Shown: in pieces, positions 1,579-43,681 of the stretch
Layout of the letters: each line of letters begins with the position of its first letter
Position numbering within the stretch: position 1 is the first letter of the stretch
From: Halobacteriovoraceae bacterium
GTDB taxonomy: Bacteria; Bdellovibrionota; Bacteriovoracia; Bacteriovoracales; Bacteriovoracaceae
Direction of reading: 5' to 3'
DNA length: 64,000 nucleotides
NCBI GenBank assembly: GCA_963719505.1
Contig: CAVRCF010000005.1
Location: forward strand, 512,001 to 576,000
Made by a program: the position numbers and the translations under genes
Notes under the pieces: generated by a model
Seen by the model: the letters and a program-made list of their open reading frames with translations, nothing else
What the model was told of the DNA's origin: nothing
Databases searched by the model: none

Positions 1579-2610
1579 CTAAGCAGCAATCGGAGGACTT
1601 TCCTTCATTTTACTGTGCGCATAAAAAGAAAGAATAACTAAAACACACGCCCCAAGCTGATGCAAAAGTGCGACAGATAAAGGTATTGAATAAATGATCG
1701 TTACAACACCAAGCACAAACTGCAGATGAATCATTCCAGCAAGCATTTTAAAAGATCGTTTTTGTTCAGGAGTATTAAGTTTTTTCTTATAGAAAATAAA
1801 AATAAAAGAGAAGAAAAACAAACACCATCCGCCCATGCGGTGAATGAATTGAATCATCGTTCTATTTTCTAGAAAATTCTCGATGAGAGATGGGTAAGAT
1901 AAAATAGCGTCAGGAATCCAGCTTCGCCCCATTTTTGGAAATGTATTGTACCCTACTCCCGCATCCAATCCAGCTACAAATGCTCCATAGATGATTTGAA
2001 AAGCCAGAAGAACAATAAAAACAACAACAATATTTCGCCCAGTTTTATGAGTGGAAACTTTATCGTCTTGATTTTTCTTAAGACCAAATATAATCCACGA
2101 GATGTAACCGATGATCAAAAATGCAAGCCCTAAGTGAGCTGCCAATCTAAAATGAGAGACATCTGGCCTATCAACTAATCCAGACTTCACCATATACCAT
2201 CCTAGTAATCCTTGTAATCCGCCTAAAATGAAAGCGACAAGAAGTTTAAGATTCAAAGAGCGCGATACCTTTTTCTTTACGACAAAGTATAAGTAAGGAA
2301 AAAAGAAAACCAACCCTATTAGTCTTCCCCATAAGCGATGAAAATATTCCCAAAAAAATATAGATTTAAAGTCTGAAAGGGACATCCCTTGATTGATTTT
2401 GATGTATTCAGGAGAGAGTCTGTAGTCGTTAAAAACCTTCATCCACTCAGCTTCGTTAAGAGGTGGTATAGAACCCATTAAAGGTCTCCAATCCACCATC
2501 GACAACCCTGAGTCGGTCAATCTTGTAATCCCACCTATCATCACCATGGTAAAGACCATGATGCACACGATAATTAACCAGATAATGATAGGGCGATTAT
2601 TTTTTGTCAT
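1579..2610 (-). CDS. ctaA: heme A synthase (COX15/CtaA)
   Basis: GGITRLTDSGLSM, FFWEYFHRLWGR, QGLLGWYMVKSGL, RLAAHL, QFIHR and LHQ motifs; multi-TM. Confidence 0.95.
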   Translation of the reverse strand: MTKNNRPIIIWLIIVCIMVFTMVMIGGITRLTDSGLSMVDWRPLMGSIPPLNEAEWMKVFNDYRLSPEYIKINQGMSLSDFKSIFFWEYFHRLWGRLIGLVFFFPYLYFVVKKKVSRSLNLKLLVAFILGGLQGLLGWYMVKSGLVDRPDVSHFRLAAHLGLAFLIIGYISWIIFGLKKNQDDKVSTHKTGRNIVVVFIVLLAFQIIYGAFVAGLDAGVGYNTFPKMGRSWIPDAILSYPSLIENFLENRTMIQFIHRMGGWCLFFFSFIFIFYKKKLNTPEQKRSFKMLAGMIHLQFVLGVVTIIYSIPLSVALLHQLGACVLVILSFYAHSKMKESPPIAA

Positions 2611-27076: not shown

Positions 27077-27822
27077 AATTTCTTCTCTTTCTTTTTAGCT
27101 TAAATGCCATTGCTGGCTTTGATCTCTCTTTGGGCACTAGCTTTAGAAGTTATCCTGCCATTGGAGCAGAAATAAACGCAGAAGCTGGATTCAATCAACT
27201 GCTTTGGGGCGAGGTTGATAAAGAGAAACCTTTTTATGGCTTTATTAGACCTGCATTATCTCTGTCAAGTAGTGTTGTGGTAAATAATTACGACGCACGA
27301 ATTGAATTTAATCCCATCTCATTTGTCAGTTTTGTTAGAGGCTATAAACATGTCACCTCAAAGTTTGATGAGTTCTCATTTTACGAATGTCGTAAAGTAC
27401 GATGTACCGGTGATATGAAAAGAGACTATTCAAAACTCAAGTTTGCCCTAGGAAGTCATGGTCTTTTAACTGTGGTTGAACTTGGGATGTATAATAATGA
27501 ATATACCGGCAGCACAGATGAGCAAGTTGCAGAGTTTCGCTTCGCAACCCTTGCAGACTCTCAAAGCGATTCTATGTACCATTCAAGATATGTCTTAGGT
27601 CTAAAGCACGATACAGGCCTCTATGGTCTAATGGCCGACCACACTCTTCTCAATGGCTCAGGTGATACCTATAATATGGATCTGTTTATCTATACGACTA
27701 AAATAGAGAGGTCACTCTATACATTTGGCTTGGGGCAGTTTTATACATCTCAAGTTGATAAAGGCATCATTGCTGTTTTTCAAATGAGAACACAGTTTAT
27801 TGAGGGAATGAATCTTTTTTAA
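27073..27822 (+). CDS. secreted/outer-membrane hypothetical protein
   Basis: Signal peptide, beta-rich, C-terminal Phe, ATGA overlap with the upstream gene. Confidence 0.6.
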   Translation: MKFLLFLFSLNAIAGFDLSLGTSFRSYPAIGAEINAEAGFNQLLWGEVDKEKPFYGFIRPALSLSSSVVVNNYDARIEFNPISFVSFVRGYKHVTSKFDEFSFYECRKVRCTGDMKRDYSKLKFALGSHGLLTVVELGMYNNEYTGSTDEQVAEFRFATLADSQSDSMYHSRYVLGLKHDTGLYGLMADHTLLNGSGDTYNMDLFIYTTKIERSLYTFGLGQFYTSQVDKGIIAVFQMRTQFIEGMNLF

Positions 27823-28106
27823 AATGTACCTGGGCAGTCTGAATTATTAAAAAGGATTTCTCTGTCCTCTTCAGCGCACTGGTTGTTTAAATTATTATCT
27901 CTAAGGGCAAGACAGATTTTATCAAAAGTACTTTCTTTTTGCTCTCCTGTAGTGCAATCCACTTCAGTCAGCTCATATTGATAGAGCTCAGTTACTGCAG
28001 AGTCGACTTGCGCTTCTTGAATTTCTACCTGTGATGAAAACGGGTTAGCCTCTTGCCCACAAGAGATTAAGGTCAATGAAAATAAGGCCAAGATAAGAAC
28101 TTTCAT
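27819..28106 (-). CDS. small lipoprotein with four further Cys
   Basis: MKVLILALFSLTLISC lipobox; start 28106. Confidence 0.7.
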   Translation of the reverse strand: MKVLILALFSLTLISCGQEANPFSSQVEIQEAQVDSAVTELYQYELTEVDCTTGEQKESTFDKICLALRDNNLNNQCAEEDREILFNNSDCPGTF

Positions 28107-28117
28107 ACTCTTATTAG

Positions 28118-28134
28118 AGCAAGTAAGATGCCAG
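28118..28134 (-). promoter_or_regulatory. sigma54 -24/-12 promoter
   Basis: CTGGCATCTTACTTGCT (GG-N10-GC, near consensus); predicted +1 abuts ATG 28106. Confidence 0.6.
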
Positions 28135-28179
28135 TATCTTCGTCCTAATTTCAAGGTCTTAGACGATAGAACTGTTGAA

Positions 28180-29260: not shown

Positions 29261-30388
29261 TTATCTGGATTTTGACGACTGTTTTTGTAATAAATACAGG
29301 ACAATACCTTGAAAAATAAATCCCAGTGAAAATGCCATCTTGAGTCCAAAAGCGTCAGAGACAACGCCAAAAACCCCATGAATAATCATTATCATTCCAT
29401 TAACAAATTTCATCATCAGTGGAATGAGTTCATCCGCCTTCTCCTGATAGGTTTTACTGACCCACCCAAGCATACAGGGAAAAAAGAAAGACATCGACAG
29501 ACCACATAATGATAAGAAAAAAGGATGAATCCACATGCCAAGGGTAATGGCCAATACTGAAAGACCACTTGAGATCTTCAAAATAAGTAACTCATCTATC
29601 TTAATTTTAATAAAAGCAAAGCTCAAACGCCCAACAAGAAGAAATAAAAAGAACAAGCTTAAAAAAAGAGCAGACTTTCCCGGTTCAAGAAGCCACACTT
29701 TATTAATATAAATGACCATTCTCGTAGAAACTAAAATCTCTGACGAAACGTAAAGAGAAATCAAAATCCCTAAACGAAAGGAGGTGGATCTATCGACCAA
29801 AACTTCTGAGCTCACCTTAGGAGAAAAACTATCATTTTGGATAGGTAAAAAAACAATCAAAACAAGTGCGGCACAGGCACTCAAGACAAAGAAAAAGGAA
29901 TACCAAGAAAAGCCAAAGCCTAGGTAAAAACTCAAAACTAAAGGTGCTGTGAAAGATGCTAAGCCATACATTGCATGCAAGCCCGAGAAAATCATCTGCT
30001 TTTTATCATCTGGAACATTTCGCGACAGTATTAGATTGTTTCCAACAGACAGAAGTCCCACAGATAAACCCAGAATCAGACTTCCCAGCAAAAACATTTT
30101 AAAGCTCAATCCCTCGCCTGCACAATAACCATAAATTAAAGTTGAAATGACCAACAGAAATACGGAGAGCTTCATAGAGTTATTAACCCCAAAAGTTCTA
30201 AAAATGGTTCCCGAAAAAAGTGTCATCATAAAAGCAAAGCCAGATGACAAACTAAAAACAAGGGAACCTTGTGAATTACTTAGATCAAAGAAAGTTAAAA
30301 TTTCTGGGTAAAGAGGCCCTCGAGAATTATCGATTAAACCAAAGACGAAAAGCGAGAAATAGGAAAATAAAATTAAAGACCACTTCAT
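29261..30388 (-). CDS. MFS transporter
   Basis: About 12 hydrophobic segments; LHAMYGLASFTAP and FLLVGR MFS-like motifs. Confidence 0.8.
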   Translation of the reverse strand: MKWSLILFSYFSLFVFGLIDNSRGPLYPEILTFFDLSNSQGSLVFSLSSGFAFMMTLFSGTIFRTFGVNNSMKLSVFLLVISTLIYGYCAGEGLSFKMFLLGSLILGLSVGLLSVGNNLILSRNVPDDKKQMIFSGLHAMYGLASFTAPLVLSFYLGFGFSWYSFFFVLSACAALVLIVFLPIQNDSFSPKVSSEVLVDRSTSFRLGILISLYVSSEILVSTRMVIYINKVWLLEPGKSALFLSLFFLFLLVGRLSFAFIKIKIDELLILKISSGLSVLAITLGMWIHPFFLSLCGLSMSFFFPCMLGWVSKTYQEKADELIPLMMKFVNGMIMIIHGVFGVVSDAFGLKMAFSLGFIFQGIVLYLLQKQSSKSR

Positions 30389-30432
30389 AGAGACCAGTTT
30401 ATACTGATCTCTAAAGTGTACGTCTAGATTTT

Positions 30433-30564
30433 TTAACTATTGTTGATATTATTTTTCACTATAAGTCTCGCCTGCTTTTTAGCGAATCGATTGTAGTGAA
30501 TTAAAGAGCTTCCCAATCCTAAGAATACTAACATTAAGCCTAATACGTTAACATCTGTTTCCAT
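30433..30564 (-). CDS. 43 aa single-TM small protein (not in ORF track)
   Basis: METDVNVLGLMLVFLGLGSSLIHYNRFAKKQARLIVKNNINNS; GGAG RBS; in-frame alternative ATG at 30576. Confidence 0.55.
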   Translation of the reverse strand: METDVNVLGLMLVFLGLGSSLIHYNRFAKKQARLIVKNNINNS

Positions 30565-30685
30565 ACTTTTCTCCATAAAGTTTAGTGTCCTCGTGACGCG
30601 TTTATTACAATCTATAGACCTTCCTGGTCTATAAATCCCACTCCTTGGGAAGCTGTAGCGGCTACCATCCTAGTAACCCTCTTGC
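30565..30685 (-). ncRNA. candidate CsrA/RsmA-binding RNA or structured leader with tandem AGGA-loop hairpins
   Basis: Hairpins GGTTACT-AGGAT-GGTAGCC (30660-30678), TCCCA-AGGAG-TGGGA (30636-30650) and TATAGACC-AGGAA-GGTCTATA (30613-30633), downstream of a sigma54 promoter. Confidence 0.5.
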
Positions 30686-30695
30686 CCCTATATGA

Positions 30696-30712
30696 AGCAC
30701 GAATCATGCCAA
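30696..30712 (-). promoter_or_regulatory. sigma54 -24/-12 promoter
   Basis: TTGGCATGATTCGTGCT (GG-N10-GC). Confidence 0.65.
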
Positions 30713-30727
30713 GTTTTAAAATCATAT

Positions 30728-30740
30728 TATCAAGCACTTA
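30728..30740. promoter_or_regulatory. IHF binding site
   Basis: TATCAAGCACTTA = WATCAANNNNTTR, just upstream of the sigma54 -24 box. Confidence 0.55.
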
Positions 30741-30948
30741 GCTCTAACTATAATGATACTGGTGTCATAGGACCAATAAAACTGGAGCTCTTTTGGTGTT
30801 TCTAAACAATATTGGGTGATTTTTTTAGTCTACCTTAAAACTCTTGAAATCATCTTTTCGATATGTCACCATTTATAGGAAGCTTCGCCGCACGGAGTTT
30901 CAAGTGAAGAAAAGATTTTTTCACTCAAGCTTAAGGAGTATAAGCACT

Positions 30949-31173
30949 ATGAATTCTGCATCTTACTATCTCATGAAAAACGGTTTTATTTTACGTCTAG
31001 AAGAGCCCCTAGATCAAGCGGATGTTCCTCTACTCATCAAAGCAAATTTATTTGATAAAGAACAAGTAAATGCTTTAAATCAAGAACAAGCGAACTTTAG
31101 AGTTGCAATCTTTAGAGACGAAATCTTGGAACTACCTGAATATTCAGAAAGAGTTTTTGGACAAGTTTACTAA
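30949..31173 (+). CDS. small hypothetical protein
   Basis: AAGGAG RBS before ATG 30949; 74 aa. Confidence 0.6.
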   Translation: MNSASYYLMKNGFILRLEEPLDQADVPLLIKANLFDKEQVNALNQEQANFRVAIFRDEILELPEYSERVFGQVY

Positions 31174-43595: not shown

Positions 43596-43681
43596 GCTCG
43601 GGTGGTGGAATGGTAGACACGCTACGTTGAGGTCGTAGTGGGGGCAACCCTGTGCTGGTTCAAGTCCAGTCTCGAGCACCA
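43596..43681 (+). tRNA. tRNA-Leu (GAG)
   Basis: Acceptor stem GCTCGGG/CTCGAGC, D-loop GGTAGAC, anticodon arm CTACG-TTGAGGT-CGTAG, long variable arm, T-loop GTTCAAGTC, encoded CCA. Confidence 0.96.

Follow-up and report, generated by a model that had tools for sequence, protein, structure and literature searches.

A predicted sigma-54-dependent mRNA with a leader of GGA-loop hairpins, a probable CsrA target, encodes a small membrane peptide in the Bacteriovoracaceae

A 64,000-nucleotide (nt) stretch of the genome of a Halobacteriovoraceae bacterium (assembly GCA_963719505.1, contig CAVRCF010000005.1, positions 512,001 to 576,000 of the forward strand), here called the window and numbered from its first letter, carries on its minus strand a locus in which a sigma-54 type promoter is followed by a series of hairpins presenting GGA in their loops, a Shine-Dalgarno (SD) sequence and a short open reading frame (ORF) for a 43-amino-acid (aa) peptide with a single transmembrane (TM) segment. 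The locus probably comprises a promoter, a 5' leader and the first cistron of an mRNA that depends on sigma-54 and is controlled at the level of translation by the single FliW-type CsrA of the organism. Hairpin and ORF coordinates are those of the minus strand in the numbering of the whole window and were read directly from the sequence; loops are written in square brackets. The main features are:

30711-30696, minus strand: sigma-54 type -24/-12 promoter, TGGCATGATTCGTGCT, with a predicted +1 near 30685
30678-30660, minus strand: hairpin 1 (H1), GGUUAC-[UAGGAUG]-GUAGCC, at the predicted 5' end of the RNA
30650-30636, minus strand: hairpin 2 (H2), UCCCA-[AGGAG]-UGGGA
30633-30613, minus strand: hairpin 3 (H3), UAUAGACC-[AGGAA]-GGUCUAUA, with a stem of up to 11 base pairs (bp)
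30590-30588, minus strand: a fourth GGA, weakly structured in the source genome
30581-30565, minus strand: SD hairpin of 5 bp, ACUUU-[AUGGAGA]-AAAGU, abutting the start codon
30564-30433, minus strand: ORF for the 43-aa single-TM peptide, METDVNVLGLMLVFLGLGSSLIHYNRFAKKQARLIVKNNINNS, whose AUGGAA start adds another GGA

A sequence-only reading of the window had proposed a sigma-54 promoter at this site. The site reads TGGCAT-N5-GTGCT, with GG and GC at the spacing of sigma-54 and 9 of the 11 specified consensus positions matched. Because the genome holds 430 sigma-54-type sites scoring at least 9/11, a match of this quality is common, and the promoter assignment rests on conservation rather than on the match. 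Conservation was assessed in five distinct orthologues: the source genome itself, two genomes found by DNA similarity (G002, with 78% identity, and G001, both in the same genus as the source) and two metagenome versions found by peptide similarity (L143 and L145). TGGCAY-N6-TGCT is kept in all five, none of which was selected by promoter or hairpins. The sequence TCATATAGGG after the -12 element resembles the yATATAGGGTA that trails this element at many strong sigma-54-like sites genome-wide. The source genome encodes rpoN (206.9 bits) and enhancer-binding proteins (eight Sigma54_activat matches with E<1e-40 and some weaker ones), and many of its sigma-54-like promoters lie ahead of small secreted proteins.

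Three consecutive stem-loops with AGGA in the loop had been claimed for the leader, and all three are present as H1, H2 and H3. Folded singly and compared with shuffles, H1 gave -9.3 kcal/mol (z -2.3) and H3 gave -12.4 kcal/mol (z -5.3, 0/200 shuffles as good); H3 stood as a hairpin but not as a tetraloop, its loop being AGGAA. H2 gave -6.0 kcal/mol with a z of -0.8, so that H2 alone is no better than shuffles. The fourth GGA proposed near 30590 exists, but a convincing hairpin was not found there in the source genome (-2.1 kcal/mol, z -0.8, 47/200 shuffles folding as well). The AUGGA described over the SD is also there, as AUGGAG at 30576-30571, and the SD lies in addition in the loop of its own 5-bp hairpin. 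H1, H2, H3 and the SD hairpin thus all present GGA in a loop, as they do in five of five orthologues, and the sites over the SD and the start codon (the AUGGAGA loop and the AUGGAA start) are both conserved.

Each orthologue keeps the promoter, the 5' hairpin with its UAGGAUG loop, two to three further GGA-loop hairpins, the hairpin with the SD in its loop and the AUGGA start, while the stems change (loops were drawn by eye, arms printed by a program). H1 stems read GGUUAC/GUAGCC, GCUAC/GUGGC, GUAAC/GUUAC and GAGAAAC/GUUUUUC, and SD hairpin stems ACUUU/AAAGU, CGUGUAU/AUGUAUG and GAUAA/UUAUC. A GGA hairpin occupies the place of H2 in all five, the other stems being UUCCCA/UGGGAA, UCCCAA/UUGGGA and, in G001, UUUUCAU/AUUAAGG (6 bp and one mismatch). 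At the place of H3 the stems are UAUAGACC/GGUCUAUA, UGGGCC/GGACCA and GGCC/GGCC, and at that of the fourth GGA the orthologues have proper hairpins (GUC-[AGGAA]-GAC, GAUCA-[GGA]-UGAUC and AUACUA-[GGA]-UGGUAU). The sequence-only reading had staked its proposal on conservation of the GGA loops in relatives, and the loops were retained on altered stems throughout. A long-range pairing was also considered, between AGCUUCCCAA (30653-30644) and UUGGGAAGCU (30516-30507, ORF codons 17-20), which form a perfect 10-nt complement used by the fold of the whole transcript; it was rejected as a conserved element, for among the other orthologues G002 and L143 keep it, L145 has it in a shifted position and G001 lacks it.

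The hidden 43-aa membrane peptide that had been predicted is encoded by an ORF conserved both in the orthologues and in database variants. An in-frame ATG further upstream (30576) is AAG in G002, L143 and G001 and TAG in L145; the upstream ATG is therefore not kept, and the start of the 43-aa form is the conserved one. Residues 1-24 are nearly invariant across five database variants, and the tail is variable. All 71 database relatives are without a name or are called 'hypothetical'. No Pfam family was found for the peptide, and the ESM Atlas gave no lead above 0.84 for this and the related peptides described below.

A pattern consisting of the promoter, 10-35 nt and TAGGATGG was searched in 237 genomes of the family Bacteriovoracaceae and matched 14 of them, with 0 matches in the reversed control. 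These 14 loci span five genera, and the C-G pair closing the loop (C-UAGGAUG-G), which lay outside the search pattern, is invariant. Over the same loci the 8-bp stem of H1 covaries, as had been suggested for a check across Bacteriovoracales: 81.7% of cells are paired, compared with 37-47% for slid partners, 7/8 pairs are changed on both sides, and 0/500 shuffles reach the score, shuffle statistics that overstate independence because the loop was part of the selection pattern and many of the loci are paralogues or orthologues. A covariance model of the promoter plus H1 (R1) scored the locus at 59.7 bits (E 2e-12). At E<=1e-4 this model matched 9 of the 23 family genomes searched and none of the 127 genomes that represented 24 other families of the phylum; at E<=0.01 it found 83 of 151 family genomes, an upper bound, as weak matches (E 1e-3 to 1e-2) are probably due to the promoter by itself.

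The units recovered in this way follow a recurring order: sigma-54 promoter, a hairpin at the 5' end whose loop reads NAGGAUG, between one and five more GGA hairpins, SD, AUGGA start and peptide. The peptides are of 31-52 aa with a single TM segment, and a strong terminator usually follows; by eye, terminator-like GC-rich hairpins with a U tract stand after most units in other genera. Two types of peptide were distinguished, type A (MEMMxVLxGMMxMxxxSLxLQHxSY+K) and a type like the peptide of the locus, and related peptides occur behind the same leader type in other genera. No NCBIfam family was found for any of the 21 unit peptides. Some genomes carry tandem arrays: G191 has three small-peptide units and one that encodes a larger membrane protein, spaced at ~400-430 nt, two units are present in each of G192 and G201, and G220 has two small-peptide units and one for an 88-aa membrane protein. 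The source genome has a single copy of the peptide unit.

Between H1 and the SD, the 21 small-peptide units hold 21 GGAs in local hairpins, where 6.0 were expected (0/500 shuffle sums reach this number), and across the units GGA occurs 127 times in total, compared with 85.8 expected; both sets of figures overstate independence because the units are interrelated. RNAalifold, applied to 13 type-A leaders, recovered H1 alone because the MAFFT alignment leaves the short second hairpin out of register. By eye, that hairpin carries GGA in 11/13 of these leaders and is GGC-[AAGAA]-GCC in the other 2/13.

The same type of leader also precedes ordinary protein genes. It was found before genes for subtilisin-like proteases (assigned by eye from the N-terminal sequence), where the SD lies in a CAUC-[AAGGAA]-GAUG loop, and before genes for DksA/TraR-type proteins, small basic peptides and other secreted proteins. 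In the source genome (G000), a sigma-54 promoter at C1:1223416(+) is followed by a ~200-nt leader with several GGA hairpins, including UUCGAAAA-[AGGA]-UUUUUCGAA, and by a 163-aa DksA/TraR-type zinc-finger gene (assigned by eye from a Cys-rich motif) whose start reads UAGGAUG; DksA-like genes with this leader type are present in other genera as well (L039, L045 and L060). The predicted sigma-54 leader units are a widespread, undescribed family in the Bacteriovoracaceae. Searches of the literature on CsrA in Bdellovibrio and on small RNAs (sRNAs) and sigma-54 in Halobacteriovorax and Bacteriovorax found no description of such an RNA, in line with what the sequence-only reading had supposed.

A small hydrophobic peptide behind a long structured leader might also be a type I toxin-like module, silenced by that leader in the manner of the tandem hok, ldr and ibs loci. 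The length of the peptides and their single TM segment, the sequestration of the SD by structured leaders and the tandem arrays in some genomes would all fit such a module. No antisense RNA gene or element on the opposite strand was seen, however, the only promoter-like site on the plus strand (30727-30754) facing a divergent gene, and both the predicted sigma-54 dependence and the use of the same leader by genes for proteases and DksA/TraR-type proteins favour a regulon over an addiction module. Conservation of the polar-aromatic-basic tail behind the TM segment, at its clearest in the LQHxSY+K of type A, suggests that the peptide has a specific partner. We consider a toxin module very improbable.

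A single csrA gene (93.3 bits) is present in the source genome; it is followed by fliW and lies after a rod-binding gene, flgM, flgN, flgK and flgL. With rpoN, all three genes whose presence was to be confirmed (csrA, fliW and rpoN) are therefore found. Since csrA is nearly universal in the family (150 of the 151 genomes searched), its phylogenetic profile was uninformative and was set aside. Flagellin genes are classical targets of FliW-type CsrA, and the flagellin leaders of the source genome have sigma-28-like promoters (by eye), one GGA-loop hairpin and a AAGGAGGA SD. The leader of the rod-binding/flgM/flgN/flgK/flgL operon (G000:C1:253567(+), the same as L061:268) contains AACUC-[GCUAGGAUGGG]-GAGUU, with the same CUAGGAUGG loop as H1, and an SD hairpin AACC-[AGGAA]-GGUU. 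These likenesses suggest that CsrA may control the flgM operon directly upstream of its own gene.

The core of the H1 loop, AGGAUG, agrees with the consensus RUACARGGAUGU, with GGA in a hairpin loop, that a passage of PMC4347634 gives from systematic evolution of ligands by exponential enrichment (SELEX). The same passage describes the ACA of this E. coli consensus as 100% conserved (PMC4347634); here it is ACU or ACC. CsrA of the predator Bdellovibrio bacteriovorus is reported, in a part of PMC13443453, to repress the two-hairpin hag leader of Bacillus subtilis, and that part of the paper describes little as being known of CsrA control in the predator itself (PMC13443453).

The GGA loops could instead serve the ribosome as SD-like standby or enhancer sites, bind another RNA-binding protein or an sRNA, or protect the 5' end from decay. 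AGGA and GGAG do resemble an SD, and H1 lies at the extreme 5' end, where stabilising hairpins act; moreover, conservation of the 8-nt loop CUAGGAUGG is tighter than any known requirement of CsrA, and the loop departs from the ACA rule of E. coli. A stabiliser, on the other hand, needs no invariant loop, yet here the loop is invariant while the stem varies, and the same loop recurs in the flgM-operon leader, which lies upstream of csrA and fliW within one flagellar cluster, with GGA loops in the flagellin leaders too. A function of the loops apart from CsrA is accordingly judged quite unlikely.

The density of GGA hairpins at the locus was compared with the rest of the genome. When sites were defined strictly (GGA within a loop of 3-8 nt, with 5 bp or more closing it, counted in 130-nt scan windows on both strands of the 3.69-Mb genome), the leader has four sites and is the sole scan window genome-wide with that number; 28 others have three, most of them inside long ORFs, and none has more. 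Under a looser rule (4-bp stems) the locus has five sites, and 14 collapsed scan windows in the genome had more, most of them apparently coding. The scan with 4-bp stems returned 275 scan windows, many of them coding, and was rejected as non-discriminating.

Such a concentration of sites raises a further explanation, that the peptide-coding transcript is a dual-function RNA which also acts as a CsrA sponge, de-repressing flagellin and other targets alongside FliW; in other genera, tandem copies bounded by terminators would titrate CsrA together. The locus has 5-7 GGA motifs in ~125 nt, a density that resembles the small Rsm RNAs, and is the top GGA-hairpin cluster of its genome, and the tandem units of G191, G192, G201 and G220 are short and strongly terminated. 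The leader of orthologue L145 gave a sub-threshold match to the Rfam CsrB model (24.1 bits, E 0.0024, with a gathering score of 71). A precedent exists in Campylobacter jejuni, also of the FliW type, in which, according to a passage of PMC4894983, flaA mRNA is both a target and a titrator of CsrA. Several observations point the other way. A sponge sRNA of the usual kind is non-coding, whereas the 43-aa ORF here is conserved, and an ORF is carried by all 21 small-peptide units and by every other downstream region read; in the 21 units the SD and start codon lie in GGA sites, which a plain repressed mRNA explains. Titration would also depend on how abundant the transcript is. The unit is present once in the source genome, with no clear terminator, and its leader type is shared with ordinary protease and DksA/TraR-type genes. 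Rfam at the gathering threshold found nothing in the window but a tRNA at 43596-43678, and at E<=10 the region 30300-30900 gave chance-level matches only, none to a Csr/Rsm model; the Rfam search that had been suggested for this family (clan CL00106) thus came out negative, no model reaching its gathering score at the locus or its orthologues. On balance, we regard the sponge as rather unlikely.

Four further features lie around the unit:

30775-30760, minus strand: candidate enhancer box at which an activator may bind, TGGTCCTATGACACCA, ~50-65 nt upstream of the -24 element
30728-30740, plus strand: match to the IHF consensus, TATCAAGCACTTA
30425-30377, minus strand: strong hairpin after the ORF (-21.5 kcal/mol, z -4.9, 0/200 shuffles as good)
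29261-30388, minus strand: MFS transporter gene (Pfam MFS_1, E 2.4e-14)

Upstream of the promoter, the TGGTCCTATGACACCA box may be an activator site. GGTCCTA and TG(A/G)CACC-type (TGACACC-type) boxes recur upstream of many related units, and in 35 upstream regions the hexamers GTGTCA, GTCCTA and AGGACC occur 13, 12 and 15 times, compared with 0.6, 0.8 and 1.1 in the downstream background; these boxes are a lead only, given that the loci are not independent of one another and that coding sequence makes up most of the background. No activator gene was found beside the units examined, and their neighbours share no common functional partner (YqeY and an M24 peptidase at g77; a histidine kinase, an OmpR-type regulator and a porin at g49). 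The IHF site of the sequence-only reading is present as a consensus match, but as a functional site it was not upheld: nine matches occur in the 64-kb window, at the chance level of 7.85 expected, and only the CTAAGT part (minus strand) is invariant, the WATCAA half not being kept in G002, L143, L145 and G001. A CTAAAT/CTAAGT box recurs at the position of the IHF match in other units, and the source genome has three genes of the HU/IHF family. On the plus strand, a sigma-70-like match (TTATCA-16-TATAAT, 10/12) at 30727-30754 overlaps the IHF-like/CTAAGT region of the sigma-54 promoter and faces the divergent 74-aa gene (30949-31173).

Downstream of the ORF, the strong hairpin at 30425-30377 buries the AUG of the MFS gene. 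A terminator scan found no canonical terminator after the ORF, this hairpin having no U tract; in G002 seven consecutive U come after the corresponding stem. It is possible that the hairpin is a leaky terminator or a translational gate, and the MFS gene is possibly co-transcribed through read-through. An MFS gene also follows the peptide gene in G001 and G002, and L143 and L145 retain an ATG at the corresponding position; the units of other genera have no such gene behind them. The MFS protein used as query against the genome contigs gave no confirmed relative.

Several other sites came to light in the searches. A second sigma-54-like promoter, TGGCATCTTACTTGCT, lies at ~28133 (minus strand) directly before a small lipoprotein-like ORF (27819-28154); the region 28043-28135 (-) gave a weak match to the covariance model (16.9 bits) and has no leader of GGA hairpins. 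An exact copy of ACTAGGATGGT at 2195-2207 (-) lies inside an apparent membrane-protein coding region, scores 11.6 bits through the loop only, and looks like chance. In the source genome, four sigma-54-like promoters (G000:C4:148275(-), C4:144008(-), C1:990237(-) and C1:774633(-)) are followed by ~130-150 nt with no obvious ORF and share a AGCUGGAU...CCCCACCUCA...UAUCCAGCUU layout together with an anti-SD-like CCACCUC; they may be a sigma-54-driven sRNA family. The sigma-54 scan also caught five identical copies of at least 166 nt (the 16-nt site plus 150 nt) starting TGGCAGTTCTTTTGCT, at G000:C5:83631(-), C5:1090904(+), C3:216026(-), C3:214165(-) and C1:44599(+), which are most likely a repeated mobile element and not promoters.

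Every unit read has an ORF, and a GGA site takes in its SD or start codon, as in a repressed mRNA. Given this layout, and the occurrence of the same leader on ordinary protein genes, the economical reading is that the units are repressed mRNAs. The sequence-only reading had offered two possibilities, a CsrA-antagonist RNA or a heavily CsrA-controlled leader, and it is the second that fits the conserved promoter, the covarying GGA hairpins, the presence of csrA, fliW and rpoN and the conserved peptide. Transcription from the promoter, binding by CsrA, the direction of control as repression and the function of the peptide are steps that we infer from the sequence. In the mechanism proposed, an enhancer-binding protein, perhaps bound at the TGGTCCTATGACACCA box, would activate RNA polymerase-sigma-54 at 30711-30696. 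The RNA would start near 30685 and at once fold the hairpin that displays the UAGGAUG loop, to be followed by two or three more GGA-loop hairpins, the hairpin of the SD (GGAG) and the AUGGA start codon. CsrA dimers would bind the upstream loops, which would be of high affinity, and from there bridge to the sites at the SD and start codon, so blocking the ribosome, and the 43-aa membrane peptide would not be made. When free FliW captures CsrA, the sites would clear and the peptide would be translated; any read-through into the MFS gene may then be translated too.

Several points weigh against a CsrA-repressed mRNA. The GGA count at the locus is by itself marginal (7, compared with 4.2 expected; 6% of shuffles are as high), H2 taken singly is no more stable than its shuffles, the fourth GGA lacks structure in the source genome, and the fold of the whole transcript pairs the 5' arm of H2 with the ORF. 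The loop lacks the ACA of the E. coli consensus, the transcription start near 30685 is a prediction, and two of the family-wide figures given above, the shuffle statistics for H1 covariation and the 83 of 151 genomes, are subject to the limits stated there.

A bolder proposal would extend the repressed-mRNA reading to a family-wide regulon of the Bacteriovoracaceae, in which sigma-54 and one activator drive RNAs that all open with a high-affinity CsrA hairpin. The multi-copy, tandem and terminator-bounded peptide units would double as RNA antagonists of FliW-type CsrA, the first such sponges outside the Gammaproteobacteria, and one activator signal would reset the entire CsrA regulon, including flagellin, the flgM operon, secreted proteases and the DksA/TraR-type regulator. 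We consider this proposal doubtful as a whole; if true, it would couple the life cycle of the predator to the state of assembly of its flagella. A narrower idea is suggested by the combination of a sigma-54 promoter with a fixed 5' CsrA-type hairpin on many unrelated genes, namely that these genes may be under two-key control, by an activator signal and by free CsrA. The analysis yields a conserved set of candidate CsrA targets in a sister family, a covariance model that finds them and a family of membrane peptides, 31-52 aa long, that carries no annotation. Titration of CsrA by the units, should it occur, would change the view that RNA antagonists are missing from CsrA systems of the FliW type.

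Among known systems, the hag circuit of B. subtilis and the flaA circuit of C. jejuni are alike in having a FliW-type CsrA encoded beside fliW in a flagellar cluster. Each of their targets has two GGA sites, the first in the loop of a hairpin further upstream and the second across the SD (for hag, as described in a part of PMC13443453), and the flagellin leaders of the source genome are similar. The locus differs in having a promoter of the sigma-54 type where theirs is of the sigma-28 type, four to five structured sites where theirs have two, and a tiny membrane peptide as its product instead of a flagellar protein; its design, unlike theirs, recurs on many unrelated genes and in tandem arrays.

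Small regulatory RNAs offer partial parallels. The locus shares with CsrB, RsmY and RsmZ (Rfam CL00106) the dense CAGGAUG/UAGGAUG-type loops and, in related genera, the form of small, terminator-bounded, multi-copy units. Those RNAs have GacA/UvrY-dependent sigma-70 promoters, whereas the unit described here is coding, reaches no Rfam gathering score and has a sigma-54 promoter; to our knowledge, no sponge RNA is known in FliW-type lineages. The Qrr sRNAs of Vibrio depend on sigma-54 and LuxO, occur in several redundant copies, are non-coding and act through Hfq-dependent base-pairing without GGA loops. The units resemble them as small multi-hairpin RNAs in paralogous copies with their own sigma-54 promoters and shared upstream activator boxes, but have no relation to them in sequence or structure. 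SgrS/SgrT and RNAIII/hld are dual-function sRNAs that encode small peptides, and the locus is likewise a short, regulatory-looking RNA encoding a small peptide; for the locus, unlike for these, a regulatory role of the RNA itself is hypothetical.

In the layout of its sites the locus also resembles the glgC, cstA and pgaA leaders of E. coli, which have several GGA sites tens of nt apart, the last ones over the SD and start codon, and in which the ribosome is blocked. The locus shows the same multiple, spaced sites with the last ones on the SD and start codon. It belongs to another phylum with a FliW-type CsrA, however, its sites are almost all in covarying hairpins, and the first is fixed at the 5' end right after the sigma-54 promoter. 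Multi-site leaders of the CsrA type are known; at this locus and its relatives such leaders are joined to predicted sigma-54 promoters and small membrane peptides.

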